From Dipteris shenzhenensis (taxonomy: Eukaryota), in assembly GCA_047967505.1 (NCBI GenBank), contig CM106538.1: DNA of 64,000 nt, one strand, 5' to 3'. The notes beneath the pieces were generated by a model. It saw only the letters and a list, made by a program, of their open reading frames with translations. It ran no database searches and was not told the DNA's origin. The first letter of the stretch is position 1; each line of letters begins with the position of its first letter. Positions 23,028-51,818 of this stretch are shown here, in pieces. Both the position numbers and the translations under genes were made by a program.

Positions 23028-23454
23028 CTCAGGGGGGTCACTCGTCATATGTAACCCTATCATGTGAGTTCAACAGATGGGTTTTTATTAATTCAATTAC
23101 TTACATATTTATATATACATAAGGAAGTAATTTAATACCCAAAGGTTAATATACAGAAGGGTGTTTTATATTGAAAATTATACGAGAACAACAAACGAAA
23201 CACTTTCAGCGAAGAAATTGTAACCCGAAATCACTAATGAAAAAATAGCTTGAACCACCGAAGCCACCTTTACCCCCAGTCTTCTGCTCCGTAGCAATTC
23301 AGGTCACGGACGCGTGGGGCAGAAGGCTCGTAGTACCTGCCTATCTAGAAGCTTGCAACATGTGACATGGATATTTGCGTAGAGTGGCTTATGTCATGGG
23401 ACATTTTGAAATGCTATTACTGGCATTTTCCTTTTGAAATGAGTAAGCGCTCCT

Positions 23455-25783: not shown

Positions 25784-28700
25784 CTAGTCGGTGTTTCTCG
25801 AATAGCTCTTTACCGAGTGGTTTGGTAAAGATGTCTGCAACATTTTCTTTGCTATCACAATCTGCAGTGTGATGTCACCAAGTAACACTCTTTCTCTGAT
25901 GAAGTGCTCTCTGACATCAATGTGCTTTGTTCTGGAGTGATATAAGGGATTTTTGGCCAATGCTTGAGCCGATTGATTATCACAGTATATTGTTGTTGGC
26001 TTTGACTCATCAAAGTAATCTGTTTCTGGCAATAGTCTTCTGAGCCATATAGCCTCACATGCACCTGTAGTGAGTGCTCTATATTCTGCTTCAGTTGAAG
26101 ACAAAGAAATAGTTGGTTGTTTGTTTGACAACCATGATATAGCACCGTGACCAAGGAAAAATGCATATCACTGTGTCGATCTCCTAGTCTCATGATCTCC
26201 AGCATAGTCACTGTCACAGTATCCATGCAACCGTGGATGACTTCCTCTGTATTCTATCCCAAACTGTCTTGTACCTCTGATGTATCTCAAGACTCTTTTG
26301 GCTGCATTCCAGTGAGACTGTTTTGGATTTGCCATAGACTGTGCTAGTGAGCTTACTGCATAACAAATATCTGGCCGTGTGATTGTCAGATATATGAGAG
26401 ATCCAATGAGTTGCCTATAGTATCTATCATTGATTGTAGGCTTTTCTGAATCATTAGTAAGTTTCAAACTCTGTTCCATGGGAGTGGCTGCAATCTTGCA
26501 ATCTGCCATATGAAACTTCTTTAGGAGACTGTCAACATACTTGAGCTGACTCATGAATGTGCTATCTGAATCTCTCCAGAACTCAATTCCAGGACAATAG
26601 TGCATAAGTCCAAGATCTTTCATGTCCAACTCTGCAAATAAGTCTTGTTTTAGTTTTTTGATGAAGCTATCCTTGCTTCCTGTCACAATCAGATCATCTA
26701 CGTACAAAAGTGCAATAGTAATATCTTCCCCTTGAACTTTGTAGTAGAGAGTATGATCTGCATTGGACTTCATGTATCCCAGATTAGCAAAATACTTGTC
26801 AATTCTGCTGTACCAACTTCTGGGTGCTTGTTTTAAGCCATAGAGACTTTTCCTGAGATGGCAAACCTTGTTCTCTTTTCCTGGTTCAACATAACCGGCT
26901 GGTTGTTGCATGTAGACTTCCTCGTCTAGATAACCATTGAGAAATGCATTCTTGACATCGAGCTAATACACATTCCATTTACTGAGTGTCGCTAGTGATA
27001 TCAAGAACCGTATGGAATCCATCTTTGCGACTGGAGCATAAGTCTCATCATAATCTTGGCCATATTGTTGTGCAAATCCTTTTGCAACTAATCTGGATTT
27101 GTATCTCTGAATACTACCATCTGGATTGTACTTCACTTTGTATACCCATTTGTTGGCTATGGCCTTTTTTCCTGGTGGAAGGTCGCATAATTCCCAAGTG
27201 TTATTTTTATACAAAGCATCCATTTCTTCATTCATAGCAGTTTGCCATTCTGGCTTGTCTACTGTGTCTTCGAAGTACACTGGCTCTTCCGTAGCCATGA
27301 TGGTAGTCATAAGAGCATAGTTGGTGGTTTCCACCTGAATTGCTTTGCCTTTCTGAGCATATGTCAATCTAGCTGGTGGTCTGCTTTCCCTAGTAGACCG
27401 TCTGAGCTGCTGTGGCGCTGCTTGGGGTGTTGCTGGCAATTCTTGCTCTTCTTCATCAATTTGTTTTGTAGGTGACTGTGAAGTCGATGCTTCTATCTCC
27501 TGTGTAGGTGAGGTTTTCCATTCTGATTCCTCATCGAAGATTACATCTCTGGAGATAATGACTTTGCGGTTGATGGGATCATACAATTTGTATGCTTTGC
27601 TTTCTTCACTGTAGCCAACCATGATGCATTTGCGTGACTTCGCATCCAATTTCCTGCGATGATCATCATGTATGTGGGCATATGCTATGCAACCAAATAT
27701 GCGGAGATGCCCAATGCATGGCTTGTGTCCAGTGAATGCTTCATAAGGAGTCATACCTTGTATCGGATCGGTAGGAAGCCGATTAAGCAAGTAGTTAGCT
27801 GTAGCTATTGCTTCTACCCAATACTGATTCGGAAGATGCTTTTCACTAAGCATTGCTCTAGCACTGTCTGCTAAAGTCCCATTCTTCCTTTCAGCTCTTG
27901 CATTTTGCTGAGGAGTATCTGCACATGTGAATTGTCTTCGAATGCCGTGATTTTTGCAAAAGTTCATGAATGCTGAAGACATGTATTCACCTCCTCTGTC
28001 TGATCTCATGACCTTGATCTTTCTGCCTGTTTGGTTTTCTACCATGGCTTTGAATTCTTGAAATCTGGTAAACACTTCAGATTTCTCTTTCAGAAAGTAG
28101 ACCCAACAATATCTGCTGTAGTCATCGATGAAGGTCAAGTAATAAAGTAAACCATTGATGCTGCGGGTCTGGGCATAACCCCATACATCTGTATGAATCA
28201 AATCAAGAATACCTCATGCACGAGAGGTACTTCTGACAAAGTTGGTTCGCTTTTGTTTGCCGAAGCAGCATGCTTCACAAACTTTTCCAAGAAACTGTAG
28301 CTTTGGAATCCCAATTGCCATATTTTGATTCCTGAGGTCTAACAAGTACTTGAAGTTGACATGACCAAATCTCTTGTGCCATTTTGCAGATAGTGGCATC
28401 TGTTGCATTTGAGCTAACATGGCATGCTTATCTGGTACTGCAGCTAGCATCCTGTATAAGCGTCCTTCCTTGACACCTTTTGCTACTAGCTAACCTCTTT
28501 TGGATTTGTCTCTGATAGTGCATTCATCACCGTCGAAGATGACTTTGTAGTTGTGTTCCGTCATTTGACCTACTGACAAAAGGTTCTTGCTGAGCTTCGG
28601 AACATAGAGCACATCTTTGACTAATCCTTTTGTACCAGTGAAATTGTTCATAGGGATAACACCTGTCCCTTGAACCGGATTCGGTGTATTGTCTGCTGTG

Positions 28701-29988
28701 TAGATGACATTATTTTGACCTTCTAATGGCTTCATTTCTGTGAACCATTCCTGATGATTTGTCATATGAGATGATGCACCGCTGTCGATGTACCAAGGAT
28801 CCTGTTCCACTTGGTCGACTTGATAACTAAAATCCTCTTTGGGATTGAAATCAGTGTCTAGGTGCATTTGTATCACTCTGATGCAATTCCTCACTTGCAA
28901 GAAACATATTGCCATGTTCATTTGCAAAATGACTGTGACTAGAATGTCCACCACGATGATTTCCTCTTCCTCGGGAATTCCCTGGGGGATTGACCGCCTT
29001 GGTCATACTGCTTCTTGCGGCAATCTCTTTCATAGTGTCCAAACTTGTGACAATAGTTGCATTGAATGTTTGACACATTGGTGGATGCATTCCCTCGTCC
29101 TTGGAATCTTCCTCGGTTGGAATGATTTCCTCTTTGCTGATTTTGGTGTTGCTGAGGATGATGCTGATGCTGATGCTGATTTTGACTTTGTTGATGATGA
29201 CCACTTTTCTGATATGATTTACCTCTGTTTCTACCTTTGCCTCTGCTTCTGTCTGAAGCTGTGAATGCCTGATCATTAGAATGACCTTTACATGCTTGAA
29301 TGGCCTGAGTCTTGAGTTCTTCACCAAGTAGAACTGACTGAAGTTCTTCCAGTGTTGGAATTTGCCGTTGGATGGCAATACTCTGGACTAGATTCTCATA
29401 TCCTTCTCCTAGTCCATTCAGGATTACTTGAACCATTTCTGCGGGATTCATAGTCTCTCCTGCTGCTGCAAGTTGATTGTTGTAGTCTTTGATGCGGAGT
29501 ACATAAGCATGACCAGTTTCACTGCTGTTGCGGAAACTCTGGTTGACCTGGTTTCTCAGGGTGAGAATCCTAGATGTGTTCTTGGACTCGTAGAGAGCTA
29601 CGAACATATCCCATGCTTCTTTTGATGTCTTGACTGTGTTGAGCTGTCCTAGCATGACATCTTGCACATTCTGCTTGATCAGGTGATAGGCATACTTGTC
29701 TTTCTTATCCCATTCTGCTTGAGCTCGGGCAATGGCAGGATCTGCTACTTGTGCGGAAACTATTTGTGTAGATGTAGATCCCGATGTAGATCCCGTTGCT
29801 GGTGTTGTGACAACAGATGGAGTAGAGCTACTGGTGGCTGGATCGGCCAATGGTCTAGGTATGGATCCATCGACATACTCCCATTTGTCCTGAAGCACAA
29901 GAATGGTCTCCATTCGGTATTTCCATGTACCGTAATTGGAGTTGTCTAACTTAGCAGATACCTCCAGATTGAGGTTGCTAGTCGACAT
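25784..29988 (-). pseudogene. gag-pol: Copia-2 gag-pol polyprotein with stops and frameshifts
   Basis: KLDNSNYGTWKYRME (gag start), CNYCHKFGHYERDC (knuckle), WYIDSGASSHM (protease), WHKRFGH..CEAC, HTDVWG..RSDRGGEY..ERKN (integrase), YVDD (RT), RTKHID (RNase H). Confidence 0.95.
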
Positions 29989-30764
29989 GGTGCAAACAAT
30001 GTACTCAAAAAGTGTCCTGGAAAACTCTGTATGAATCAACTGCAAATACACTGAAGATGCCAAGTGAAATCTCTGTACCATCGGTGAACATAGAACTGCA
30101 GTAAATAAGATCTGACCTGTGTTACAAGGCTTGTGGCAATGATGCCGAGAATAGCCAAGAGGCTTTACAAGGCTGAAAAAATGATGTGCACGATGCCGTG
30201 AGATAGCCAAATAGGCTTTACAATGGTGGCATGTGTGTGTGAAATCAAGTGCTATCTGCCCACTGAATCAATTTGCAATGCCTCTGAACTCTAAAGTTTG
30301 CTCACTGAACTGATGAACGTAAGGTTTCCGGTAATGTAATGATGTGAAATCGGATGTGAGCGTATGGACCGAGTAGGTACTAGTCGGGAATTTCGGGCAT
30401 GGCTTAGATTGGCAACTTGGGGAATTCAAAGCGTCCCCTCTATGGCGATCTAGTCTACTCTGATCTAGATCTAAACCAACCATCGATCGATGAAAGAGCA
30501 GCAAATAATTCCTTTTCCTTTGTTCTTTTTAAGTGCTGGGTCAGATGCGTCGATGTAGAGGCAAATGTGCGTGAAGGAAGTGGTTTTGTCGGCGAGGCTC
30601 AAATGTGAGTGTAACTTGCGCCAAAATGTGCGCGTGATGTAACGAGCACGTAGAGCACAAAAAATCGAGCGACTTTCCTTTTTGGAGCACCCTCAAATTC
30701 TTCCTGGATCAAGAGATATGACTTGATCTAAGTGGAGGGGCAAAAGGAGTGCAAATGGTGCTCA

Positions 30765-31235
30765 ATGATGATGTGTCACTGTGAGTCACATGCAGTGATG
30801 ATGTGGCACTGTGCTTAGCAAGAGGTGTGCCAGTGAAGCTCTGTGCTGAGGTGGCAGGAGTGTGCACATGCAGTGTGTGCACAGTGTGCCTGGCAGGGGA
30901 CTGTGCCTGCAGGGGTCAGTGATGACTGGACTGCTCAGGTGGCAGTGCTGAGGTGGCACAGATGATGTCAGCAGGGTGACATGGCACTGATGACATGGCA
31001 TTGATGACGTGGCCTGATGATGTGGCCTGATGACATGGCACTGATGACATGGCACTGATGACATGGCATGATGATGTGGCACAGATGATGTGGCCTGATG
31101 ACGTGGCACAGAATGAGCTGGCAGGGTGATGTGGCAGTCTCACGGGACTGCTGATGTGTCAGATAAGGATTGCCACGTGTCAGGATAATGTGATGATGTG
31201 GCACGTGGGTAGGATAAGGTTGCCACGTGGCACAA
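30765..31235. repeat. Tandem 13-14 bp repeats (GATGACATGGCACT / GATGA.GTGGC) in the Copia-2 5' leader
   Basis: Direct repeats visible; they include GACGTGGC, GCCACGTGTC and GCCACGTGGC variants. Confidence 0.8.
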
Positions 31236-34200
31236 ATTTGGCCAACCAAACCCAACCCAAGTAAACTTTACTATACCAACCTAGCAAGGTTACTTTAATC
31301 TAACCGTAGGTATATTTGATCCGCCACGTGTCACAAGGAGTGAGACCGGAATCTTATGAAGATTTCGTTGAGGCCACCGTTAGAATCGTGCGTTGCTGTG
31401 CTTGAGTTGTTTGCTGCTGGTTGCCAAGGTCGATCGAGGTCGACGTAGTCCCGTGGTCGTCATTGTAGTCCCGTGTGATATAGAGGCATGCAGCTTTGTA
31501 GATGGTTGGTCGGCCAGTGAGCTACGCTGCCTCTGATAGAGGTCACAGTCGAGGCTGGAAGACGGCTTGTAGAAGAGTTATCGATTGGGAGACAGCTTGT
31601 AGGTTTGGGAGGCCCGTATGACGGTCGAGGAAGAACAATCCAAGATTGCAATGGGGCCGGAGACCGGATCTCCTACTCAAGCTCCATTGCTTGATCCATC
31701 GTCTCGTGCGCTGCCTGCCACACCTTACATGACAATTGAAGAACGCAATAGGGAAGGAAGTCGTCGGCGAGTAGGAGGCAGCCGTTGCACTGTAGAGCCC
31801 TTCTTAGATTGCGGATGGAGTCGCTGTTGTAGAAGCTTGCCTAGCGTCGCCTTTGTTGCAGTTGGCTATGGAGCATGCGCGTTGCCTTGCTTGTGTGCTT
31901 GCGAGGAGTAGAGTCCATCGGTGGAGCAACTGCGTTACGTGCTTGGCCATTGGCTGGTTGGAGCTAGCTCGTGGAGGAAGGCTATGGTCAACGCCACAGA
32001 CCTCTCAACATGGCCGATCTTGCCAAGCTCAACAATGGAGCTATCGGATCCGGTGGCACGGCTGCATGCAGGCTGCACTGAATAGAGCCTCTCTGTGGAG
32101 GTCCGATTGGAGGTAGTACTATAGTCGTGGACGTCCATTGAAGGAGGCGACTCAATGCTTGTGATTGTTTGTGGAGTAGGAGCTTTGGATGCTTTCTTGC
32201 TTGCGAAGTATGCTAAAGAGGTCACGGGCATTCATTGGAGGCTGTTGGGAGCTTTGCAAGGCTCGTTGTCGGCCGTTTCTTAGCTACAGATCTTACTCCT
32301 CTCTCTTACACTCCCTAAAAGCTCTTAAAGATAGATTTCCTCTTGGAAATCTCTGGAACTTTCCCTCTCTCGCAAGAAGCTCTCAAAGAACTCACTAAGT
32401 CTCTCAACAAATCTATTGCAAAACAAAGAAGAATCTCAATGAACGGAAATTTCTATCATCAACGGAATGAAAGAATGCTCACTCAACGGAAGTTTCTCTC
32501 ACGGAAGAGAAAACTCGATCTCAATCTCTATCTCACTCTCACAAGGTGGATGGCACCTCAACGGAAGGCAAAACCATGCTCTGATACCATGACAAAATAT
32601 GAAGAGGGGAGAGGAGAAGAGTGGAGATGAGGAGAGAGGGCACAGCTAGGGAGCACACCACAAATGACTAACTGTACACTAGAATTAGTTGAAAAAATAG
32701 AATATATACAAACCCTTTTAGGGTTAGGGTTAGGGGATCTAACCCTTTCCTTTATAGCACTCTCTAAGGTTAGTGCTATGCACATATGATCACATGATGG
32801 TGCTATGCACACATGATCACATGATGTTGAGCGTGAACTCTCAACACCACCTCCCTTTCACCATAGCTAGGAATCTTGGCTCAACCTTGGTGGACGGCAG
32901 GGCAATCACATGGCTAGGTGAGTTGAAGCAATGGACGAGCAGAGGTCAGTGTAGGGGGGAGAGCAAATGCTCGCCAAGAGGGCTATTATTGCCATGAGGC
33001 AAGGGGAGACACAAGGCGTTGCTAGCAGGGCTGGAAGAGAGTGGGACAAAGAAGGCCAAGGGGCATCCACCATGGTTATATGCCTATGAAAGGGAAAAAT
33101 AATTTTCACAAATATTTGGTGTGCGTGGAAACTATGGAAAATATGCATTGGTCCACATGTACTTTTGGCCATTAATCAGCTATTGCCTTGTTAAGATTTT
33201 TAATTCTTGACATTGATTCCACCCATTACAAGCTATGGATCTTATGGGGTGGAATCTACATTTGCTAAATGCCTATATCTCCATCCTCTTCCGTCTATCA
33301 TCTATACACCAATGATAATGCGACTCTTGTGTTCATAACCTATCTACCATCATCGATCACAAAGTTTCATTTCTTTGGCTAGGGCCCTGTCTCACCCTGC
33401 CCTACTCCTCCCCCTCCTCCTCTTTTGTAGTGTGCCTCTAGCATAGAGCAATGATAGGAAACTTGATCTGCTCTTGGCCTAGAGGGGTAGCCATTGTTGC
33501 AAGGCTCAATGTCGCCTCATATTGGAGCCTTGGTGCCTCCATGATGAGCATCACAGCTGTGTCTACTAGCTCCAATCATTAGTCATGCCTTCTAATCGAA
33601 CACCATTGTAACACATAAAATTAAGCATACTAACCAAAACATCCTAAATGACATGCCAAAATCCCTTGTAAAATTCAACAATGAAGCCATCTTGTTTTAG
33701 AACATTCTCACAAGTCCTCTCCCATTCACTGTCAACCATAGGGGAAGAATTGTCGATGATGCAATCGCAAAATCAATCCAACCATGATGTCTAGGTTGTG
33801 CAATATTGTGAGAATATTCTTGAATATGGAGTAAAATGGTATATGAATAACACCGTTGCAAGTTCTCTACAAGCTATGAAGGTGCAATCTTATCTTGATC
33901 TTATCTTGATCTTGCCAAATCTTGCTAAATCTTGCTGCCAAAATTTAATGGCCCTTAATGGGCCGCCGCTTTTGAAATCCCCTCCTAACCTTAATCCATC
34001 TTCCTCGCCATCTCCTTCTCCCCCATCCTCCACGATCCTCTCTTGCTAAAGCAAGACTCTCTCCACCTCTTCCTCTTCAAACGCTGATGTGGATCTGTCA
34101 AAGGCTTCCCCTTCCTTGAGCATGCAATGCTTTACATCTATAAGCCAGGCGAGGCACTGCTGCATGTTTTTCCAATAAAGGTTTTCCATCATTGGCCTAT

Positions 34201-35586
34201 TCTAATTGCTTTTGATAACCCTAACTTTGATGCTTGTCTCATCTGCACTAGGCAAACCATAAACGGAAAAGAGACAGCAGGATAGAACATGAGATAAGGG
34301 CTGATCAACTAGAACTTGAAGACGATGAGGGAGGAGAAGACGACACCAATGTACAAGCTGCTTTGCATTCGTAATCGACCATTCATCCACTTTTCCACCG
34401 TTTAGCACGAACGTGAACAAGCGATCAGAACAAGCAAGCAGACCGGCAAGCCATTCATCCAGGTACTCGCTCTCTTCGATCCTCTCATTTGGTGCTTTCA
34501 TCAGGACTTTATAGATTATGGGCCATTCTCTGGCGCCCTTAATTCCTCCTCACTTTGGCAACTTCACTACCCTGCACGCTCTGGATCTCTGTTGTGTGAA
34601 GTTTTGCGTGAGTTCATGCTTGTTTTCTGGCATCGCTATAGGCAGTAACAACAGCAATATGTTGCAATAGGCATGTGCTTGTAATTGGGATATCTGATTC
34701 AAATGTTTGCGATGAATTACAGAGCTCATGCGAGTTACTCTCAGTCCCCTTGTCACGTAGGCACATCACTTGCCTGGCTTTTCATAGGAAGTTCTAAGTT
34801 ATTACAAAGTTTGCTATGAAGAACTCTAGGTTGCCGAGACACTAGCATGGCAACCTTTCTCTAGGTCATTCTTGCTTTGCGCTTGCTAACATAACATCAA
34901 AATATGGTAGCATTGAAGAGCTGTAGGATAACGTGGTTACTACCATCCCTTTACGGTTTATTGGAGACTTGATATTAGACCACTCTGCTCACGATGTAAT
35001 TTTTGTGGGCACCCTTCCCTTTAGAAGGTTCTGTTCTTCATGCTCCCAGCTTGGCTTCGGTTGTTCTCTCTTCGCTTGCCTGACTCTTGCTGACTCCTTG
35101 TCTGGTTGAGCCACTCTCAGGGCCTGAGGATAATCTCCATCGTATTCTGTTCGTCATTTGCTCAAGGTGCTAAGAAGCCGTTGAGCTAGAAGTGGGGATT
35201 GTCAAGCTCATGGGACCCTCTCCTCTCGAATGTTGAACTCGTGAACACCAAACTCTGAATCCCGTTCAAGCCCTTCCTTTAGCATGCCCTTGTTTACCAT
35301 GCCCTCCCTGTCAGACGTCAGAGAATTCAAAATGTTTGACAAAGCAATATGTAACTGTTAAAAGAAGAACGTAAGAATAAAACCAACGACAATCTTGCTA
35401 GTATCCAGCCCATTAAAAGTTAGTGAAGGTTGATGATTTGTGACCCACGATACAAATGAGTGACAGAGAGCAGAAAGGGGCATACATGAACGGGGAAGAT
35501 CTAGCGCATTTTGTAACAACCACTGACTCTCCGGAAGCTTTGAAGACAATACCATCATTGTAGTAAAATAACACTTGACTGTATTG

Positions 35587-35833
35587 CTCAGGGGGGTCAC
35601 TCATCATATGTAACCCTATCACGTGAGTTCAACAGAAGGATTTTTTTAATTTCTAAAATTTACAGAAATAAATATACATAAGGGACTATTTTAAATAGTT
35701 TTGGAAAAAATTTACACATTTGTATAGAAAAGGGGTACATTCTATTAACAAAATTTTTTACAGATAAGGGACTTTAAATATAGGCCTTAAACGCACGTGA
35801 TATAGAGGGTTTATACATAGTGACCCCCCCGAG
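35587..35833 (+). mobile_element. 247-bp MITE of the P-like family, nested inside P-1
   Basis: CTCAGGGGGGTCACT...TATCACGTG at the left end and CACGTGATA...AGTGACCCCCCCGAG at the right; exact 8-bp TSD CTGTATTG (35579-35586, 35834-35841); AT-rich interior. Confidence 0.93.
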
Positions 35834-36402
35834 CTGTATTGTCATCGAAAAATGCAATGCAAGGAGACTTGTAATATTTTGAGCTCATGAAATAAATACC
35901 AAAAATTACGAATAGTTGAAAATAAAGTAGATTGTATTTGATGGTCGGACCTTCTCCAGCTTCAGCTTCGGATGTTGTCCAACTTCAGCTTCAGTGACAC
36001 TAGGATGATCTTTGCATTGCCTAGCACAACTTTTACTTCTTTCTCCTGTGTGGTAGGCTGCGACCACCATTTGTGCGCTTGAAATCCCTATGTAGTGAAA
36101 GTAAATCTCTCCAACAGTGGGGCGAGAGATAATTTTGGAAGAGGCATTAGGTTTTGGTGACTCTCTCCAACTACGATTACGATGACTAGTGCAGTGAGTG
36201 CATCTGCTGTTACCTCCAGTAGTGAATCCATTTTGGGAGGGACAACAGGATTTGATAATGTCTCCGACAATGGTGAGAGAGAATTTTGCAATTTGCCAGT
36301 ACTTCAAGACCAGTGTGGTGACCACGACAACAATAGGCACTTCGTTGGTATCCATGCAACTTGGGTTGCTCATCCATAGCTTAGGATTCCTCATTTACCT
36401 TA

Positions 36403-37355
36403 CTCCTTCCCCTTTACCTTACATAAGCTCTCTAATAAGTTTGTTCATAAAGCACTGCATCTCGAAAAGGCAGTTTTGGGAATGACTCAACTGGAGGTTA
36501 TAGCTTGCCTTCTACTGAGAGGAATTCTATTAATTGTCCCTTGGATTTGTGCAGGTCACCAAGGAGACTCTCTATTCGCTTTGTGCCTGGTTAGCAATCC
36601 AAAATCAAAACTATAATTGAAATAAAGGTATGATAGCTTTTCTTTCTCTACTCAATAACCCATTCGTTGGCAAATTTTCGATAAGTTGATAAGCTTTTTT
36701 GGGGGGGGGGTTTCTTCTTCACGTATGTTCGATGTAGTGTCATCTTTTCATATAGTATGTCAATGTCATAACTTCTTTATTCTTGATATTACATGACTAT
36801 TAGATATCGACGTAGTGTCGTATATAGCCTTTCGACATAATACGTCGATCATCTGATTTGTAATGTAATATTTGAGTCAATTACTTGGGCCATGCATTTG
36901 CATGGTGCTTATCTTTCCGCATTGGATCGTATTACTCGATTATATGTGCGGTTAAGTAAGTAAGTCTGCATTTTGACATTTGGTTATAATATTCAACCTT
37001 TGATGTCGTTACAAGGACTCCTTCTCATTGTTTTGAAACTAGCTCGACACTTGGTCGTATCATTCGACTGTATGTGTCGTCTCTCAACCTTAGAAGAGTA
37101 ATAGAATTCAACACTTTGTCATTTATTCGACTTTTGGTGTTGTTTCTTAGATATATAATTTATAAAATAAGTAGGCTTCAACACTAGGTCGTTTATTCGG
37201 CTTTCAGTGTTGTCGTAGCTTATTTCATAAAACAAATGTTTAAACTTCGACACATGGTCATTTATTTGGCTTTCAGTGTCGTTGTAGGTTATCAGTGTTG
37301 TATGATAGTTTCGTCTTCAACACTTGGTCATTTATTTGACTTTTGATGTTGTTGT
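36403..37355 (-). repeat. Segment B: inverted copy of 18764-19711
   Basis: Continuous reverse-complement similarity over about 950 bp. Confidence 0.9.
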
Positions 37356-37797
37356 CCTCTTTGGAAATATTTTGTGTAGAATATAGGGGACCATCGCATA
37401 AATGCTAGTGTGTAGAGGTTGTAAACTTTCCAATAAATATACATCTGAGATTCATGCTCATACATCTAAGGTAACAATGCTAGAGCCAATGATATTTGTG
37501 TCTTTCATTAATGCCTATCCATGGGGTCTTTGAAAGCTGCTTATGTATAAGGATTCTAAGTTGAATCTTATCTTTAATCAATTGTGGGTCATCAACCATT
37601 GGATATTATTTGAAATACTCTTCCAATGTTGATTATCTAGTGTCTAACACACACTTCTCCACACACTCAAATGGTAGGCCCATGTAAGCATGATGCAAAT
37701 TTCATAAGAATGGAGTTCGTTGTGTTCTTTATTGTAATTAACTTTGTGTTCATTGATTATTTAAAATATGAATATATTTTAGATTCTCTCTCAATAC

Positions 37798-39357
37798 TTG
37801 GTTTTTTCATGCATGTTTTGCCAGAAATCCTTTTGTGAAAAGATGCAAGCAGAGCAAAGGAAAAATTGGCTCAAAGTCATTAGGCGGCATCTTTGTATAG
37901 GGATAAGTAAGATGAGCAAGGAGCAAATAACAGACATAACTAGCAATGCAATACGGATAGAGTGTTTCTACAATGAGGTCATAGCCAACACAATGGGAGA
38001 GACGTTGCCCAAGAGTGAAATGAATGAAGGTGGAGTACGTCACATGATCAATAGCATCATAGGAAATATGAAGAAATGTGCAAAAGACTTGCGAGATGAC
38101 GTGCCTCCTAATATTGACATGGAAAAATTAGGTTTTTGGGATTTGAAGTGGAAAGAGGAGAAGGGTAGAAGCAAGAGGGCAAAAGACATAGATTCACATT
38201 TCACTATTTCGAAGAGAGTGCGATATGAGCAATCAAAACATTCATGTGATCCAACTTCTGAGGCATGGTTAGCTATTGACGGTAGTGGCGGGGATGCTTC
38301 TCACAAAGCACATTCATTTAGAAATGGTGATTGTTCAATTGTGTTAGGTATCCCCCATGAGGCTATAGAGGAGGGTGAGAATCTTGGTGCTGGCTCATTT
38401 GGAGTATGCTTTAAAGTCACTTTTAATGGCATCTCTTTCTTTCCTCGAAGTATTACTTATGCGGCAAAGCGCTACAAAGGGAACATGTCTCACACCTTAA
38501 AGTCATTTGACAAAGAATATGGAATGCAAATCTTACATCCAGGTATTGTCAGATGCATAGGATTTACTAGAAGCGTGCCTTGGATCAACATTTTTCCATA
38601 CTTCAATGGAGGGAGTATTTGAGACATGATGATGCAGCTACCCTTTGAGAAAGGGACTTTCAGAAAGCAAGTGTTATGCTTGAAAGGCAATGGAGTCACT
38701 AGGAGAGAACCAGATCCAATACTAAGTGATGTACAGCTTACGAGATTAAAGGCATTTGTGGAAGCTACCCCAGACATCATACATGCATTGGTTGATGCAT
38801 TAGCAGCTGTACACCAAGAAGGCATTATACATTGTGATCTACACCCTTTCAATGTCATGCTAGATTTTACCAACAATCATAGTCCACGGGTTGGCATCAT
38901 TGATTGGGGATTGCTACTTCGATACAGTGAATCAAGAGAAGCTGTTAATTTTGTGAAGCGTACTCCAGATATGGATGATGTGACTTATAAGATCAAGAAG
39001 AGTACAGCAATAAGACAAAATCGAATTCGGCCTTGGCAAGCTCCAGAAATAATCGACCCTGAGAACACCAATGCTTACAGTAAAGAATCAGATGTGTTTG
39101 CCATGGGATACATGATTAAAGAGGTTATTAATTTTTATAAGGAGTGTAAGGAATACTACTTCAAAGAGGATTACAAAAAACAGTCAGCATGGAGTGGCAA
39201 GTTGCAGCAAATTTATTTCAATGCAACTAACCATATGTTTGTGGAAAAACAAAATAGAATGACACTGGCCGAGATGAATAATCGACTAGCAAGATTTAAC
39301 ACTCAACCCCATGCATGTTTGCGGCCTGCAGTTGAGATGATGCCTCAGTTTTATTAA
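37798..39357 (+). pseudogene. Eukaryotic-type protein kinase with N-terminal extension; single in-frame stop at 38620-38622
   Basis: LGAGSFG (Gly loop), YAAK (VAIK lysine), FDKE (alphaC), HPGIVRCIG, HCDLHPFNVML (catalytic loop), IIDWG (DFG equivalent), WQAPE, SDVFAMG. The two ORFs are in the same frame. Confidence 0.9.
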
Positions 39358-39851
39358 TCCGATTTTATTATAAAGCTACTCTTGGACAATTATGTTTATA
39401 AACTATAATGTTACTCTTTCAATGCATTTTGAATACTAGTATATGCATCTATACTATTTGAGTTTAATAAAGTACTATAATATATATATTTTTTAAATTC
39501 TCAAATTTTTATCTTCGTGCTGTAACTTCTTGCATTTTGAATACTAGTATATGTGTTTATAGTATTTGAATTTAATAAAGTGTAAAGTGTCTTAGAATGT
39601 ATTTTTATTTTTTTTCAAAATTTTATATTTGTGTATTAGAACTATGTATTAATTTGGGAAGAGTTTGTGTTTATTATGGTTAAACTCAAACCCATGAGTC
39701 ATGCATACAAATTTTTATTATAATGATTAAATTTAAACTCACCAGTTATGCACAAATTGGAAATCTAAATTTTGCAGGTCATGCACACACAGGTGGAGGG
39801 GGGTTGTAATTAAGGTTCTCATTTTATTTTGAAGTACATCGGTCTCCTATC

Positions 39852-42800
39852 ATGGCATCTTTTTTTAGGATTCAAGTGATTGACTATGATAGTAAGGAGG
39901 AATTAGGTGTTGTTAGGGTGACAAGAGACACAGGTCATCCCACATTCTCTCATGTTTGTGAACAAATTGAAGGTGATGAGCTTCTATTGGAACCCTTTGA
40001 GTTTGTTCAGGACGAATATATAATAACCAAACGGCAAGAGGAACGATGGACAATCAATGATCAACTCTTAGTGCACATCAAGAGAAGTCTATGCCGCATA
40101 GAGGAAACTCCTTATCCATGCAAAAGACATTGCACTCAACTAGCTAATGACATAAATCTTGATGCCCAAGTGCACATGTCTTCAAAGCTTTCTAGTAGAT
40201 TACTAAGCCCAACTATTCTTGAATGTTGGCAACGTGAATCTGATAGAGTTAGATCAAAGCTAAAGGAAATGGTAGTGTCAAGGGATGATAAGTTTGAGTT
40301 GCATTCTGAGGACTTCAATGGGGTGCCCCATGTGCGAATTTGGTGTCATGAGTGTAATGAACTTTATGGTAAAGGATTGATAGAAGGCAAGCATGCAACA
40401 TACAATTGCTTCTCTAACTTCATGAGATTTCACATATTGGAAAGTAAAAAGCATGAGCTCAAGTATATGGTTGCTCGAGGACTACGAAAAGAAGATATGC
40501 CCAAAGTAGTGCATCAACCGACAAAGGATGACAAAAGAGAGATAGAAGATGCGATAGAGAAGATGAAATCTTTTATGTCCACAAATGAAGGTATTATTTG
40601 TTCCTTTATTCCTCAATCAGTATTTGCCATCTTCTTACATTAAGTCTCTTACTCATCTCCTATCGTTTCAATAGGTTGGGATTTTGAGGTTGTTGAAGCT
40701 ACAATACATGATTTTAAGGACAAAAGCTTGGTGAAGGTGCGATGCAAATATGATGATGCATGGTTGCGTTTATGTCCTCCAAGATCAGATTTGTACACGG
40801 TTCTCAATGAACACACAAAGTCAAACTCTCATATCAAGTCGCTCATGAGAAAAGATGAAAATCCAAAGGTAGCACTCACTGGCTTGCGAGGGCGTCCTCG
40901 AAAGGATAAGGATCATGATCCAAAGCAAAGATCTCTTAGCAACTTTTTGGTTTCAACAAAAACTAGAAGCCCAAGTACGAGTGCTTTCTCTGTTGATTCA
41001 AGTTTTAATAGAGAAAATGAATCTTCTTTTGTAAATTTTGACTTGCTATGTTGGGGCCTTTGGAGCCATGAGGTCAAAGTAGGTAACAAGTATGTCAAGG
41101 TAAAGCCTTTCTTAGATGATCAATGTGGTGGGAAGTATTGGTTTATAGAGCGTCATGTTAAGGCGACATTAAATAATGGATGTACTGATATTCATGTGGA
41201 TGGATGCTTTCGTCACATAAGTTGTATACGCATTTCACAAGATGGGCAACCATTTAAAGACTTTACATGCCACCATTGCAAGGGGATAGTTAAACTTGCT
41301 GACTTTAGAATGAGATTGTATAGAGAAGAGAAGGTTGAGAATAAGAGAGGAGATAGGGGTACCGGTTGTGGCAGAAGGCTAGATTATCTTACAAAGAGTG
41401 AGCTTAGAAATGCAACTCTTTTTGCTAAAAGACGAGTAAGAGACCTTTCTAAGCAACTATGGTGGACAAAGTCTCAGGTTGCCATTGTTTCAGTAAGAGT
41501 CCGCACTTTAAGAGAAGCTAGCATAGAGTCTCTCAATCGAAAGGATGTAAAACGATTTTGCAACAACATAATCGAAGCCCATAGATTGGAAAAGTTTGGT
41601 GGTAAAGTTGCCTTATGGGACTCTCTACAAGATGTTGCCACAAACATAATCAAGTCAAGTGCTGGACAAAGATATAGTGAGAACACAAAGGCAATATTTG
41701 AGGTTGCAAGGATGTGGGGAGGTCTAAGGTTACATGACTTCTTGAGTTCCAACCTCAATGGACCTTCTTTATCAATGACAAAGCGAGGGCAAAGACTTGC
41801 TACCTACTCAGTTTGTACCTGGTATACATGGATATCTTTTTGATGCAATCACTGAAATTTATGAAAAAGAAAAAGAAAAGCATGGAATCATGTCAAGGAT
41901 TCCCTTCATCATAGTGGAAGATGAAACTGCAATAAAGAAGCGGATAAGGTAACCTCCTTTTTCTCTAAATTATTTTCATAATCTAAATCTTGTTTTTGAA
42001 TGCAAGAGGATTGAATATATGATCTTACAGACTTGTGCTTATTATTGCTTGTAGGTGGAATCCAAAGGATGACATGCTTGTGGGTTTTGATGGATATAAA
42101 GTAGATGATCATGAGTGCATGACCACATGCATGATCAAAGTGGGAGAAGGACAAAAAGGATATGATCAGATTATTGATGCATTTCAAAATTGTGTCATTG
42201 GTGGACGTGCAAGAGTTTTTCTTGCCAATCCATTGCATGATGCACTCCCACGCTTGGTTCTTGCACTTCATTGCACTTGCGGCCGATTTGATGCAAGTTT
42301 TGTCCGCAAGCAATGGGATGCTATTTTAAACTTATGGAATGAGAAGCTAAAGACCACGGTTGGTCCAATTATTGGACATGCATCTAATGGTGATAGTCGA
42401 TGAAGAACATTGATGATCTCCGATTATCTAGATAAAAGAGGTAGTAGATCTGGGATAAAATGGGATGGATGGCCTCTCTCAGCAAAAGTTTTGGAAAATC
42501 AAGTTTTTGGGCTACATGATCAAGATTTTGTACATAATGGAAAAAAGTTAGTCAATGTTCTTGACAAGCCTAAGCGTCAATTGGCTATTGGCAATGTTTG
42601 GATCACCTTAAATCATGTCATTATTGTGTATGATGCTTTTTCTATCGACAAGCATATGCTAAGGGAGGGAGATATTAGGCGAGATGACCGCCAAAATTGG
42701 GCTGGAGCTCAAAGAATATGCAGTAAACAAGTGCAATGGTGCTTGGGAGAATTGGCAAACAATGGAATTCATAGAAAAGAGAGGAGCATGCTAGGAACAC

Positions 42801-44098
42801 AAGCTTATCTTGAAATTGCTGGGGATTACATTGACATCTTCTTATCTCCACATTTGAATCTTGTGGATCGAGTCTATCTTGCGGGAAAAGTCTCTTTTTT
42901 CTTTCAAATTTGGAGGTCTTGGATTGTTCATCATGCCAACTATACGTTGAATAGAAACTTCATAACTAAGGAAGCTTTCTTAGATGTGCAACTCTCATGC
43001 CATTTTGTGGTCCTACTGATCAAGTACTTTAGAGAATTTTGTCTAGGCCTATGGTGTCCTTTACATCTTACAGGTTCAGATGCAGTTGAAATCTTCTTCA
43101 GCAAGATTGGAAGCATGGTGGGACAAGAACGCGCTTATGACTTGATGGATATGCTACATAGTGCAGGTAGTATGAATAGGGAACATGTATGGAGAGAATT
43201 GAATCTCAAACAGAACATGCGAGAAGCTAATCTAGGGGACTATGAGTGTGTGTCAACTGATGATAAAATCATTGAAGCATTGAAGAAGGGACTAAAAAGT
43301 GCTCAAGAAAGGTGTGAAAGTTTGCATATGAAGCCAAAGGGTGAGAATATGAAGTGGTGGATGGAACCTTGGTCAAATGGATTCGCAGATGCATATTCAC
43401 AAGAATCTGATTCTGAAGAAGAAGACGAATGTCAAGCAGATCATGTGTCAGAAATAGATGATAATGACAACGATGCCTCCATAAGTGAAATCAGACATGT
43501 GGTGGATTCTCTCCTAGATGAACAAGAAGCAGTGAGCCCAGTTGTTACCATTGATGGTAAAACTCTCTTCAAGTCCACATTGGTAAGCCAACTTAATGGA
43601 AATCCCACACTCTCTAAAGATAGACTCACAAGGGTTTGCCAAGGAGTATACTACTCTAAGGAAGATATACCTCTTGCTACATCAAATGAGAACCTATTTG
43701 GAATAGGTTCCGATTGTGCCGTATTCTTTCATGAAGAACACAAAACAAGGAAAAGCAAAAGGAAATGCAATCCAAGATCTTTGCAAAAAAAGAAAACATA
43801 AGCTATATGGTACCTTGGACGAGTTCAAAAAATGAGGAGAAAGGTTGGTGGGGGGTATGTGGAATATAAAAGAGGGTTCAACCTTTCAAATAGACCTTTT
43901 GGAGTAGAAGTCCAGCTTGGGTGGTATCAAAAGGCAAAAGGTTCAAGATGCTTCACATATGACCTTACAGACCTTGACATGATAAATATTGAGAGTGTAA
44001 TTGCATTGGCAAACCTCACCTATGAGTGTAATAGCAATAAGTATACTTTAGATGAGAATGATTGGAATGTATTCAATGACTTTGTAAAGGGGCATTAA
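39852..44098 (+). pseudogene. P-element-like DDE transposase, three coding exons, roughly 1350-1400 aa when repaired
   Basis: Frame-preserving GT-AG introns 40591-40674 and 41949-42054. Motifs IIVEDETAIKK (D1), GHAS[N/D]GD (D2), DQDFVHNGKK (DxxH), DRQNW, TGSDAVEIFFSKIG (E). 4-bp duplication at about 41801-41808; stops at 42401 and 43799. Confidence 0.82.
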
Positions 44099-44586
44099 AC
44101 GCACTTGGTAGGGGCTTCTTTGTTATCTTTCTAATATGATAAAAGCTTTATTACGATTATTACTATGCGCTGAGTTTAGTTTGATTTCTCTTGATGGATT
44201 TTAAATTATTTTTTTGCAGGACCTTGAATCACAGAAGTGGATGATTTGCAACCGCCTGGGTACTTTTGTTTATATGAATGCCATCAAGCAAGTTTAAAAA
44301 TGCTATTTTGGCATCGGGTACAACAAGATGTTGTGTGAATGTAGCCTCTATGGTTTTAATACCATGGTTTGATATGACTTAGTGGATGTTTGTATTTAGC
44401 AAGAAGTAAATATTATATATCGTCATTGAATGCTTTGTAAAATTGGCTAATCTATCATCCCTTCTCCTAGCTAAAACACCACAGAGGGGATACTAGGAAA
44501 TACTACAAATAGGTTACATAGGGATTTAGAAAAGAACCCTTGCACGCACGTGATATAGACATATTACACTAAGTGACCCCCTCGAG

Positions 44587-46066
44587 TCTCAATCTGCCTG
44601 TCCATGGCAAAGTATGTGAACCAGTGCTAGAGGACACTCCAGGTCCACTAATATTTTGTGATTGCTGCTGTGAATTCTGTGTAGCATTACCATTTTGTGC
44701 ATCTACATCAATCATCACATTTACTGGTTTATACCAGCTGCTCATCTCATAAAAAACATCTCTACTTACTGTAAACTTACGTGTAGAAGGGTTATAGCAT
44801 CTATACCCTTTTTGTTGCAGAGAATAACCAATAAAGATGCACTTCTCAGCTTTTGGATCCAACTTGGACCTCAACTCATCTGGCACATGGACATAGGCAA
44901 TGCAATCAAAAATTTTCAAATGAGAAATATCTGGTTTCCTACCAGTATACATCTCCTCTGGCATCATGCCATGTATTGTTGCAGTGGGAGTCCTGTTCAT
45001 TATATAAACTACTGTAGCAACTGCTTCAGCCCAATAATAATCTGGTAGATCTTTTTCATTTAGCATAGCCCGAGATACCTCTCCAATATGCCTATTTTTC
45101 CTTTCTGCAATTCCATTTTGCTGTGGGGTATGACTGCATGAATATTGCTGCTTTATACCATGCTCCTGCAAGAACCTTGCAAACTCATTTGAGAGGTACT
45201 CTCCCCCTCCATCTGACCTTAGGCATTTTATTTGTAGGCTTGTTTCTTTTTCAACCATAGCTTTAAAAGCTTTGAAGTGCCCAAACACTTCACTTTTCTT
45301 TTTCATAAAATACACCCAAAGTTTTCTGCTGAAGTCATCAATAAATGTAACAAAATAGTGACAGCCACCAATAGATGCAGCTTTAGTAGTCCACACATCA
45401 GAGTGGATTAATTCCAATGACTTTTTACTCTCTTGAACATGCCTAGGAAAAGGTTTCCTTGCCTGTTTCCCAAATTGACAGGCTTCACAAACCTTGTGCA
45501 TTTCTGCAACCTTGAATTTAGGCAATCCTGCAACAATATTTTGGGCTTGCATTGATTTAAGTCACTGTATATTAACATGACCAATGTGTTTGTGCCAGAT
45601 ATCAATATCTGCAACTACACCGTGCAAACATTGCTGCACTCAATTCAGGCATGTCCGCATCTAACGTAAACATCTTGCCCGTCTTCTTTCCTTTTGCTAT
45701 CAAGCGACCATTATTTTTCATATCCTCACCAAAGCATCCATGAGGATTAAATCTGACCTGCAAGCCCTGCTCAACCATCTGACCAACAGAAACCAGGTTC
45801 TTGGTGATGTTCGGGACATGAAATACATCAGACAAGTATTTCTTTTTCCCATCCTGCATAGACAAAGGAATTTTGCCAATCTGCACAATAGGATGTGCAG
45901 TATCATCACTAGTCTCCACAAATCCTGGTTTTTCCATTTTCCTTGCATCCTGCATCCATTCAGCATGACCTATCATGTGGTTTGACGCACCTGAGTCAAC
46001 ACACCACACATCATTGCTTTCTTCTGCACTTGTCACAGAATTTGTCATATGCTGCACCATAAACAA
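44587..46066 (-). pseudogene. pol: Copia-1 protease and integrase
   Basis: WCVDSGASNHM; CEACQFGKQ; HSDVW; RSDGGGEY; TPQQNGIAERKNR; SKLDPKA. Confidence 0.95.
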
Positions 46067-46977
46067 ATGCTCATTTCTTTTCCATTCATAATGTCATTCT
46101 GCTTTTTGTAGCAGTCTTTAGCCATATGCCCCATTTTACCACAGTAGTAGCATTCAACATTGTTGTTTGCATTTTGGCCTCTCTGCCATCCACCATGACC
46201 TCTTTGGCTCCCCCTGCCTCTAGAGTTACCACGTCCTCCTGCATAGGACTGGTTTTCTTGCATTTGCTGCATATTTTGATTTCTACCACGGCCTCCAGAT
46301 CGGCCTCCTCTACCTCTGCCTCTACCCCTTCCAGCATTTGAGTAGAAGACAGTTTCTTTTGAGGTTCCTCCTGAAGAAGATGCACCACCATTTCTCTGCT
46401 CTTCAGAAATTAGAAGAGCAATCAACTCCTCAAAATCAGGAAATTTTTCACGAACGGCAATGGATGTCCGGAACTGTGCATAATCCTTTCCTAGACCATT
46501 CAAGGTCACAGAAACTAAATCATCATCATCCACTGGCGACCCAATGGAAGCAAGTGCATCCGCAATTTTCTTCACCTTCATGTGGTAGTCATTGATGCTC
46601 ATATTTTCTCTCTGCACATTGTGCAACTCCTGCTTGAGCTGCATTTTCCTGGCCTGCGTATTTGTGCTGTACATTTTAGCCAAAGTATACCATGCCACCT
46701 TTGGCATACTTGCATCCTGAATATGCACAATCATTGAATCTGAAATACTGATAGACAACCAGTACATAACTTTTCTGGCTCTCTCATGCCATCCTTTAAA
46801 TGCCTGCATTTCCTGTTGATTGGGAACATTAGGAAGAACTGGTTCTTCTTCATTTCCTGTAATGAACTCCCAGTAGCCTTTTCCCATCAAGAAATTTGTC
46901 ATTCTAAACTTCCATGCCTGGAAGTTGTTCTTGTAAAGCTTTTCAGTGACAATCTGTGAAAGGGAATCAGATGCCAT
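46045..46977 (-). pseudogene. gag: Copia-1 gag
   Basis: KL.KNNFQAWKFRM..FLMGKGYW N-terminus, UBN2-like core, RGG-rich linker, CYYCGKMGHMAKDC knuckle; frameshift near the 3' end. Confidence 0.93.
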
Positions 46978-47929
46978 TATAGAACACTACAAAATATTCT
47001 ATCACTGCAAAAACACAGCTTTTGCCTCACACGGGCAGATCTGCAAAACTGACGAAGGTGGTATTTTACCACACAGTCACTTCCTAGTGACGATTTTGCA
47101 TCAACAGGCAACAAGCATGAATCTGCAACTCCCAAAATCTCTGCACACAGGCATATGATGCAATTTCTGCGGCAACTTTTCACCGACTAGCCGAGCAGTG
47201 GTCGCACAGCAAAAGCAGGGCCTTTTTCTGAGTGCCTGTGGAGAACTTCCGCCTCCAAAACGGGCCCCAAAATGACCTCGAATCCAAAAAATAAAGTCAC
47301 CGAGGGCTTCGCCTTTTCCCGCAGCATATAATGCCCTCTTGCCACACCGCGAAGGGTGTCTCAATCTGAGACAGTGCACTCTTGCACTTCCGGCTGTGCT
47401 ACCTGCAGAGATTTGCTCCCAAACTCGAAATAGGAAAGCAACACTGGTCCTCTTACCAGGACACTGCGAACTTGGTTTGCTTTCTTGAGCTCCTTACCAC
47501 GAACAAGGCTCTGATGCCATGTGAAGATAGTGGGAGAGAGGGAAGGAGTCTCACTTGCGGCTTTCTCACATGCACAATGGGGGAATACACACAAAGGTGG
47601 AGGCTGAAAACAGTTTTCCTCTTCTTAGTTGTGAAAGCCAAAAAAAACTCTAGTACAAAGAAATAGAAGAACCCTATATGTGGGTCTCAAACCAAACTCA
47701 ACTAACTAAGGTGGCATACTAACTGAGCCACAAACTAGAGTAGATAAGGATAGCTGTCATCCAGCTATTATTCGTGGGCGGTGTACCAACTGCATCTCCA
47801 GCTAACAAGTCGGTGACATAAATACACAACGGTCACCCTGGCATATCGCAAGTGGAGCTCGATATCTCAACACTTTTACTATGCTCTAATCAAGGAGAAG
47901 CTCAAATTGAGGAGAAGCCTAAATCAAGG

Positions 47930-49579
47930 GATGTAAAGTGTTGCATGCTCAAGGAATCCAGAAAAGGGGAAGCCTTTGATAGATCCACATCAGCGTTCGA
48001 AGAGGAAGAAGTGGAGAGGGTGTTGATTTAGCAAGAGGGGATCGTGGAGGATGGGGAAGAAGGAGATGGCAAGGAAGATGGAAGAGGATTAGGAGGGGAT
48101 CTCAAAAGCGGCAGCCCATTAAAGGGCCATTAAATTTTGGCAGCAAGATTTAGCAAGATTTAGCAAGATTAAGATAAGATTGCATGAGCGATCACCTTCA
48201 TAGCTTGTAGAGAGCTTGTAAGCATGTTATTCATATATCATTTTATTCCATATTTCAAGAATATTCTCACAATATTGCACAACCTAGACATCATGGTTGG
48301 ATTGATTTTGCCATTGCATCCTCGACAATTCTTCCCCTATGGTTGATAGTGAATGGGAGAGGACTTGTGAGAACGTTCTAAAACAAGATGGCCTCATGGT
48401 TGAATTTTATAAGGGATTTTGGCATGTCATTTAGGATGTCTTGGTTAGTATGCTTAATTTTATCTGTTACAATGGTGTTCTATTACAAGGCATGACTAAT
48501 GATTTGAGTTAGTAGACAGAGCTGTGATGCCCATCAAGGAGGCATCAAGGCTCCAACTGAGGCAACAATGAGCCTTACAACAGTGGCTACCTCTCTAGCC
48601 AAGAGCAGATCAAGTTCCCTCTCATTGCTCTATGCTAGCACGAGACACACTACAAAAGAGGAGGAAAGGGAGGAGCGAGTAGGGCAGGGTGAGACAAAGG
48701 TCTCTTGTAGAGCAATGGATGCTAGGGCCTAGCCAAAGAAATGAAACTTCATGACTGATGATGCCAAATAGATTCTGAACACAAGAGTCGCATTGTCATT
48801 GGTGTAGAGACAATAGAGAGAAGAGGATGGAGATGTAGGCATTTAGCAAATATAGATTTCACCCATTAAGATTCATAGCTTGTAATGGGTGGAATCTATG
48901 TCAAGAATTAAAAATCTTGACAAGGCAATAGCAGATTGATGGCCAAAAGTACAGTGGACCAATGCATATTTTCCATAGTTTCCATGCACACTAAATATTT
49001 GTGAGAATTATTTTTCCCTTTCATAGGCATATAACCATGGTGGATGCCCCTTGGCCTCCTTTTCCCCACTCTCTCCTAGTCCTTCTAGCAACACCTTGTG
49101 CCTCCCCTTACCTCATGGAAATAGTAGCCCTCCTCGTGAGCATTTTCTCTTTTCCCTACACTGACCTGTGCTCATCCATTGCTTCAACTCACCTAGCCAT
49201 GTGGTTGCCCTACTATCCACCAAGATTCCTAGCTATGGTGAAAGGGAGGTGGCTCAACGGGTTTCCTTGTGCCCCCCTCAACCCTGTGTACATTAGGTTA
49301 GCTACTTAGACTTGTTAAATTATGCTAGGTTTCATTATTACTATACATTGTTTTAATCAGAATAGCTTATGTTAGCTTCTGTTAAGCAGAAGTGCCAATA
49401 CCTTAATGCCAATTTATGAAATTTAATGTGGATTGGTTTTATGCATGTGAATTTTCTACTTAGAAAATGAAAAATATATGTGCTTGAATCACTCTCATAT
49501 CAGCTACATTACAAGAGTTACAAATTCTCAACAAAACGCTCACAAAATGGTGCTTATTATGTCCGAGATACACTATGCA
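47930..49579 (-). repeat. Segment A': inverted copy of 25063-25391 joined to 32852-34138 (Copia-2 empty site)
   Basis: Reverse-complement similarity throughout, with a single CCACC where P-1 has CCACC-Copia-2-CCACC. Confidence 0.9.
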
Positions 49580-51198: not shown

Positions 51199-51323
51199 AT
51201 ATATTTGTGGAAAAACAAAATAGAATGACATTGGCCGAGATGAATAATCGACTAGCAAGATTTAACACTCAATCCCATGCCTGTTTGTGGCCTGCAGTTG
51301 AGATGATGCCTCAGTTTTATTAA
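51199..51323 (+). pseudogene. 3' tail of the kinase gene in P-2
   Basis: FVEKQNRMTLAEMNNRLARFNTQSHACLWPAVEMMPQFY* matches the end of the 38626-39357 ORF. Confidence 0.88.
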
Positions 51324-51818
51324 TTCGATTTTATTATAAAGCTACTCTTGGACAATTATGTTTATAAACTATAATGTTACTCTTTCAATGCATTTTGAAT
51401 AATAGTATATGCATCTATACTATTTCAATTTAATAAAGTATTATAAAATATATTTTTAAAAAAATCTCAAATTTTTATCTTCGTGCTGTAACTTCTTGCA
51501 TTTTGCATGCTAGTATATGTGTTTATAGTATTTGAATTTAATAAAGTGTGAAGTGTCTTAGAATGTATTTTTATTTTTTTTCAAAATTTTATATTTGTGT
51601 ATTAGAATTGTGTATTAATTTGGGAAGAGTTTGTGTTTATTATGGTTAAACTCAAACCCATGAGTCATGCATACAAACTTTTATTATAATGATTAAATTT
51701 AAACTCACCAATCATGCACAAATTGGCATTCTAAATTTTGCAGGTCATGCACACACAGGTGGAGGGGGGGTTATAATTAAGGTTCTCATTTTATTTTAAA
51801 GTACATCGGTCTCCTATC

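Follow-up and report, generated by a model that had tools for sequence, protein, structure and literature searches.

Several DNA transposons of plants carry a second gene beside that of the transposase, namely ORF1 in PIF/Harbinger, TnpA in CACTA, mudrB in MuDR and VANC in VANDAL21. These accessory genes are thought to aid transposition or to counter silencing, and to our knowledge none of their proteins is a protein kinase. Pack-MULEs and Helitrons also capture host sequence, and what they capture is usually fragmentary or chimeric and traceable to a closely related parent gene. In the Drosophila P element, the terminal repeats are 31 nt long. According to PMC7776569, THAP domains are restricted to animals. 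Within the sources that our literature search reached, no account of a P-like element from a fern or moss came up.

Here, we describe a transposon in a 64,000-nucleotide stretch of DNA from Dipteris shenzhenensis (contig CM106538.1 of assembly GCA_047967505.1; hereafter the window). It resembles the Drosophila P element and the P/THAP9 superfamily in its 8-bp target duplication, its short inverted termini and its miniature derivatives, and the fold predicted for its transposase best matches Drosophila P transposase structures (6p5a and 6pe2). Unlike Drosophila P, the element has a second gene, which encodes a protein kinase; its transposase family has a protein of ~1,400-1,530 aa without a Pfam P/THAP match, and its termini measure 15 nt rather than 31 nt. 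As in the two-gene plant transposons, a transposase and a separate second gene lie within one pair of termini, and the second gene may have an accessory role here as well. As in Pack-MULE and Helitron captures, a host-like coding sequence resides within a DNA transposon, but the kinase in the window is full length, has a conserved start and stop, and lacks a close parent. We consider, with a probability of roughly 0.6, that the kinase is the true second gene of a lineage-restricted two-gene P-like cut-and-paste transposon. This lineage is probably one of ferns.

The more complete of two insertions in the window (copy 1) spans positions 23028 to 44586 on the plus strand, a length of 21,559 bp including nested insertions, and is bounded by inverted termini and an 8-bp target-site duplication. 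The left duplication, TCTCAATC (23020-23027), is repeated exactly at 44587-44594. At the left junction, TCTCAATC is followed by the 15-nt terminal inverted repeat CTCAGGGGGGTCACT (23028-23042, plus strand); at the right junction, AGTGACCCCCTCGAG precedes TCTCAATC, and the right terminal repeat (44572-44586, minus strand) reads CTCGAGGGGGTCACT on the minus strand. The terminus pattern of the element family, written CTCRRGGGGGTCACT, has five matches in the window (at 23028, 44572-44586, 57147-57161, 35587 and 35819-35833) against 0.23 expected, and at least five matches were seen in 0 of 100 shuffles. Self-comparison of the window showed that copy 1 interrupts a copia-like retroelement at 23027 | 44587. 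The two flanks rejoin into continuous copia-like sequence, with the matching points in an intact copy at 59853 and 59860 (59853-59860).

Within these ends, copy 1 runs from its left end through a long non-coding arm, poor in coding capacity, to the kinase, a 494-nt spacer, the transposase and the right end. The kinase therefore sits inside the termini and the target duplication of copy 1, and these element ends, which enclose the kinase, are newly defined by the present analysis. Nested insertions lie upstream of the kinase. A MITE of 247 bp (35587-35833, plus strand) has the same termini as copy 1 and is flanked by its own 8-bp duplication, CTGTATTG (35579-35586 and 35834-35841). Because this nested MITE has its own duplication, the element family must have been mobile and have generated 8-bp duplications. 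Another insertion, a copia-type LTR retrotransposon on the minus strand (25389-32848), is not part of the element proper. It is bounded by 263-bp direct repeats (25389-25650 and 32586-32848) that are 98.5% identical and, as read by eye, contains integrase and reverse-transcriptase-like ORFs on the minus strand.

The MITE had by far the top summed contig depth in the public runs compared, depth not being a measure of copy number. In run X4, the summed depth was 13,423 in the bin at 35500-35806 and 60-217 over the transposase, values that likewise do not equal copy number. A 1.6-kb segment of the left arm, itself interrupted by the LTR element (25063-25392 and 32847-34113), recurs in inverted orientation at 47964-49579 with 88-92% identity, ~1.6 kb upstream of the second, 5'-cut copy of the element. 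This repeat could be native transposon sequence that was rearranged in the second copy, or it could belong to another repeat family. Directly upstream of the kinase lies a 0.97-kb repeat (36389-37355) with an inverted match at 18764-19726 (94% identical).

The remainder of the window is also rich in repeats. A large satellite-like array at 7100-11700 is built of palindromic units of the GCATAAGC/GCTTATGC type with many overlapping repeat families, and includes 86 copies of a 76-nt unit. The copia-like family has at least three copies, at 20811-23027 plus 44587-47872 (the one split by the P-like element), 58412-61319 and 62024-64000, and one of these copies lies inverted downstream of the second copy of the P-like element. 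A 289-bp direct repeat (15948-16236 and 17853-18141; 99.7% identity) has its two members 1.9 kb apart, and these may be the LTRs of a small young element.

The kinase gene is a pseudogene of 504 codons on the plus strand, extending from an ATG at 37843 to a TAA at 39355-39357. It is intron-free, and its sole in-frame stop is a TGA at 38620-38622, within a conserved NGGS(L/I)xD stretch; the longer frame from 37783 to 39357 is likewise open save for this codon. The initial annotation had described an intron-free kinase with one stop, and the ORF bears this out. That annotation had the gene run from 37798 to 39357, of which the end stands and the start does not, the coding start being at 37843. 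From the kinase stop to the transposase ATG (39852) we measured 494 nt, in agreement with the ~0.5 kb first estimated. Of the 494 aligned bases of this AT-rich spacer (39358-39851, plus strand), 23 are different in copy 2.

For the protein comparisons, the stop codon in the 504-codon window kinase (P0001) was read as X. The Pfam Pkinase model (PF00069) matched residues 176-447 with 68 bits (cut-off 31.7; E 1.1e-18), and the N-terminal part before this domain had no Pfam match. The motifs comprise GAGSFG, K209, E225, HCDLHPFN at residues 330-337, DWG at 354-356 and PWQAPE. The motif set first read from the letters, including HCDLHPFN and DWG, is present. The alignment to relatives requires no intron, and the start methionine lines up with those of P0004 and P0005. 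An AlphaFold2 model of the kinase (pLDDT 84.2) has a two-lobed kinase fold; at least 500 PDB entries matched it at E<=0.001, and the 50 listed were all kinases. In the same model, residues 1-110 are predicted with confidence to be helical (pLDDT block means 76-96), and residues 111-164 form a low-confidence segment.

The transposase gene lies downstream on the same strand. Exon 1 (39852-41948) contains a TAA at 40641-40643 and, near 41803, a 4-bp insertion that is absent from copy 2 and from other copies. A 106-nt GT-AG intron (41949-42054) follows, across which the frame is restored in both copies. Its removal joins ...DETAIKK(R/Q)IR to WNPKDD, a point at which the relatives (A2 consensus) are uninterrupted. 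Two stops, TGA (42401-42403) and TAA (43799-43801), interrupt exon 2 (42055-44098). In total, the gene has ~1,378 codons with three stops and one 4-bp frameshift. Damage per codon is similar in the two genes, given one stop in 504 codons of the kinase and three stops plus one frameshift in ~1,378 codons of the transposase.

The proteins of the window's own transposase (P0006 and P0007) have 46 near-length relatives and six longer ones (1,307-1,530 aa), among which those with species names come from Adiantum nelumboides (<=71% identity), Riccia fluitans and Porites evermanni. The family thus has a patchy spread over a fern, a liverwort (R. fluitans) and a coral (P. evermanni), and is unrecognised by Pfam. 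Neither the P-transposase Pfam models (PF21787-9, PF12017) nor a THAP domain matched the window ORFs or seven relatives; with E up to 10, the same proteins returned unrelated families only (E 0.03-0.17). The transposase has Cys/His-rich stretches and no THAP. PDB sequence searches with the transposase, either as a single sequence or as a profile, gave 0 matches. An Atlas search gave a P-transposase lead with scores of 0.76-0.81, under the 0.9 mark. At the sequence level, the transposase is not a member of the Pfam P families.

Structural prediction pointed to a P-like affiliation. We modeled the relative P0009 (52-55% identical to the window protein) using AlphaFold2 with an alignment of 24 of the 52 matches, and obtained a mean pLDDT of 69.6 with a core of ~85-97. 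The best Foldseek matches were the Drosophila P element transposase structures 6p5a and 6pe2 (E 2.8e-10, TM 0.66 over the target, 517 columns), which were far ahead of RAG1, Hermes and Transib. Acidic motifs conserved in the A2 consensus (AEDET, SDGDS and GSDxxEIFFSKIG) may, on a by-eye reading, hold the catalytic residues. The predicted P-transposase fold and the 8-bp duplication together support a P-like transposon.

A second copy at 51199-57161 (plus strand) comprises the kinase tail, the spacer, the transposase and the right end, and is 95-97% identical to 39233-44586. Its 5' side is cut off and its decay is greater than that of copy 1. Of the kinase, the final 125 nt remain, and tblastn recovers residues 464-504 alone. 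Both copies in the window are dead. The right terminus of copy 2 is at 57147-57161, and the flank beyond it differs from that of copy 1; copy 2 is therefore a separate insertion and not a segmental duplicate. Since the two separate insertions share one junction, the order kinase tail, spacer, transposase must already have existed in their source element. This upholds the claim that the linkage predates both copies, which are 95-97% identical over these three parts. Between the copies, the kinase tail and spacer have diverged to the same extent as the transposase, and no repeat boundary between kinase and transposase was found within the window.

Comparison of copies 1 and 2 yielded a dN/dS of 0.47-0.73 for the transposase. 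The initial annotation had proposed such a test for the kinase; it could be carried out on the tail, where the value of 0.35 rests on only 5 differences and is uninformative either way. These values fit a mixture of pre-insertion selection and later decay.

A word-indexed search identified four full-length relatives of the kinase (P0002-P0005; 414-505 aa; 34-42% identity), one of which is a hypothetical protein from Adiantum nelumboides. At 90% clustering, P0003 stands for 19 sequences and P0004 for 13. Alignment of the five sequences (the window kinase and these four) revealed invariant G182, G184, G187, K209, E225, D332, H334 and N337, an invariant D354-W355-G356, and invariant P397, W398, A400 and E402 of a PW.A.E motif. 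Set against HRDLKxxN, the catalytic loop is atypically worded: D332 and N337 are kept, the arginine position holds C, T or N, and the lysine is H334 in all five. A wider alignment of 22 sequences, consisting of P0001-P0005 and 17 of the 150 matches listed, showed at least 90% conservation of K209, H330, D332, N337, D354, W355 and E402, and G356 was invariant. Outside the close family, identity to the window kinase falls to 16-27%, and the wider group shares WNGGS, HPG(I/V), H.D...N and DWG. Evidence for past selection on the kinase comes from its start, its stop and its full set of catalytic residues, which persist among relatives that are 34-42% identical.

When 1.84 billion representatives were searched with a profile, 3,846 matches were obtained at E<=0.001, of which 133 reached E<=1e-10 and 31 reached E<=1e-30; the strong matches were mainly short pieces. 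Going by the cluster sizes and these fragmentary matches, the kinase family looks multi-copy and decaying. No close host parent turned up among the same 1.84 billion representatives, the nearest non-family proteins being 16-27% identical. Searches of viral contigs and genome contigs gave no relatives of the kinase, and an Atlas search returned generic kinases only. The kinase had been judged unlike a captured fragment, and this assessment agrees with its full length, its aligned start and stop, and its nearest non-family relatives at <=27% identity. One protein, P0080 (2,846 aa), was considered as a kinase-transposase fusion and rejected, as it consists of four tandem kinase repeats and has no transposase part. 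The four repeats are akin to the window family and are separated by long Ser-rich linkers.

The nearest solved kinases by profile were B-Raf (1.7e-10) and KSR2 (~6e-8), and by fold LIMK1, IRAK4, FGFR2, RET and LCK (~1e-10, 17-20% identity). Unlike TKL kinases (B-Raf/KSR, LIMK1, IRAK4) and receptor tyrosine kinases, the window family has a histidine in place of the lysine of the catalytic loop, no arginine before the aspartate, DWG, an extended insert between hinge and helix E, and a predicted helical N-terminus (1-110). The phrase H.DLHP.N is reminiscent of the consensus of the APH/choline-kinase-like family. The catalytic-loop region (residues 305-357) also matched Pfam APH, with a weaker score (3e-07). 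In contrast to APH/choline-kinase-like proteins, however, the domain as a whole is matched best as Pkinase and has a PW.APE activation-segment motif and the later protein-kinase subdomains. These features mark the kinase as a divergent protein kinase of the TKL/TK-like type that retains every catalytic residue, has DWG and lacks the RD arginine.

We then considered the kinase-transposase linkage in other genomes. The 636-aa protein P0149 contains a transposase N-terminus (residues 9-292; 25% identical to P0007, E 3e-12), a transposase C-terminal part (365-498; 39% to P0006, E 1e-19) and the kinase N-terminal domain (494-625; 33% to the window kinase, E 1.4e-15 and, by profile, 1.1e-13). The transposase parts come before the kinase part, the opposite of the order in the window, and P0149 may be a gene model spanning two neighbouring copies. 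In P0149, nonetheless, parts of both families occur next to each other in a distant genome. This protein was the only one of the 150 kinase matches listed to have a transposase part, and a kinase part was present in none of the 54 proteins of the transposase set (52 matches plus P0006 and P0007).

Neither tblastn with E up to 10 nor a family HMM run over 1,821 six-frame ORFs with E<=1 detected a kinase relative at any of 70 metagenome loci with related transposases. At least 3 kb of sequence lay upstream of the projected transposase start at 17 of the 70 loci by hand count, and the transposases of these 17 are 31-48% identical to P0009. The four loci nearest to the window transposase (L001-L004, 99% identical to P0009) are uninformative in this respect: L001, L002 and L004 have just 1.2-1.8 kb of upstream sequence, and at L003 a retroelement-like ORF on the opposite strand occupies the expected 5' region. 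The 17 loci had 12 upstream ORFs of at least 140 aa, and nine were scanned, three from L039 being left out because their coordinates were the same as those of L017. No family was common to the nine ORFs scanned at these kinase-less loci; one locus had a peroxidase. With 0 of 70 loci having it, the kinase is no standard constituent of the transposase family, and it belongs at most to a transposase sub-lineage. The description of the kinase as persistent cargo of the transposon thus applies to the sub-lineage and fails for the family as a whole.

Public runs contained pieces at 85-100% identity to the kinase and the transposase in four runs from four studies. Among the 32 pieces listed (1865 more exist), those of X1, X2 and X3 cover both genes, and coverage of the kinase by X4 appears in depth bins only. 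No contig bridging the kinase-transposase spacer occurred among the pieces listed for the four runs, and no RNA run was listed among the public runs matching the window. Contigs of X3, a run labelled as RNA by guess only, connect 36625 with 42053 and with 44218; the joints have GT..AG ends and just 27 letters on the short side, for which reason they were given no weight. These joints skip the kinase and half of the transposase, and 42053 is the acceptor of the transposase intron. Splicing, a deletion derivative or an artefact of repeated sequence may each account for them.

Three other accounts of the kinase have to be weighed against a true second gene. In one, a sub-lineage of the transposon took up a full-length, intron-free host kinase, possibly a retro-copied one, and carried it as neutral cargo, so that the conserved motifs would be those of the host kinase family and would say nothing of a role in the element. 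The lack of introns and the absence of the kinase from all 70 related transposase loci both favor passive capture. A weak hint in the same direction comes from run X4 (organism C), where summed contig depth was 0-19 over the kinase and 60-217 over the transposase, although depth cannot rank genes, and neither this difference nor the uncovered bins were counted as evidence. Against capture, a search of 1.84 billion representatives brought up no close host parent, the nearest non-family proteins being just 16-27% identical, and the relatives of the kinase are themselves multi-copy or fragmentary. P0149, moreover, ties both families together in a lineage that is 25-39% identical, and the start, stop and all catalytic residues are retained at 34-42% identity. 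On balance, we regard neutral capture, the main rival, as unlikely, if still deserving of real weight.

The kinase could instead be part of another nested mobile element, or an unrelated neighbour gene. The region upstream of it does contain further nested repeats (the LTR element, the MITE and the 0.97-kb repeat at 36389-37355), but the window has no repeat boundary between kinase and transposase, the kinase tail and spacer diverge from copy 2 equally with the transposase, and a single terminus pair with an exact 8-bp duplication encloses the kinase. We find an origin in a different element very improbable. We attach equally little credence to the idea that the kinase is of a host defence or signalling family beside which these transposons repeatedly insert, the linkage being a matter of target preference. 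The gene order in P0149, opposite to that in the window, speaks for such a preference; against it, the kinase lies within the termini rather than beside them, and the same junction recurs at a second site of insertion.

If it is a true element gene, the kinase would be catalytically competent in active elements. The constitutively active CK2 alpha likewise carries DWG, and kinases of the non-RD type are often independent of activation-loop phosphorylation. Because the window family has no arginine before the catalytic aspartate and has DWG for DFG, as in CK2 alpha, we infer that its kinase probably needs no activation and would be always on. Such a kinase might serve as an accessory factor that phosphorylates the transposase or the transposase complex. 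Alternatively, it might phosphorylate host silencing or DNA-damage proteins. We give these two options roughly equal weight.

Beall, Mahoney and Rio reportedly found in 2002 that the activity of P transposase is modulated by phosphorylation. The initial annotation had invoked such modulation as known; we were unable to confirm it, as "phosphoryl" occurs 0 times in the P element review PMC7776569 and our literature search, within the sources it reached, gave no source. The same search, similarly limited, brought up no protein kinase carried by a transposon, and the word "kinase" occurs 0 times in two reviews (PMC6431247 and PMC9033089).

Collectively, this work defines a P-fold transposase family that is unseen by Pfam or the PDB at the sequence level. 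A bolder proposal, which we hold as tentative and rather doubtful, is that an old fern P-like lineage requires its own constitutively active kinase as an obligate second gene. If this were true, the element would control its transposase, or shut off host silencing or damage signalling, via phosphorylation, and it would represent the first DNA transposon of eukaryotes that depends on a kinase. The accessory genes of DNA transposons reveal how mobile elements handle their hosts, and an element-borne kinase would link a transposon directly to cell signalling and so add a new type of accessory function.
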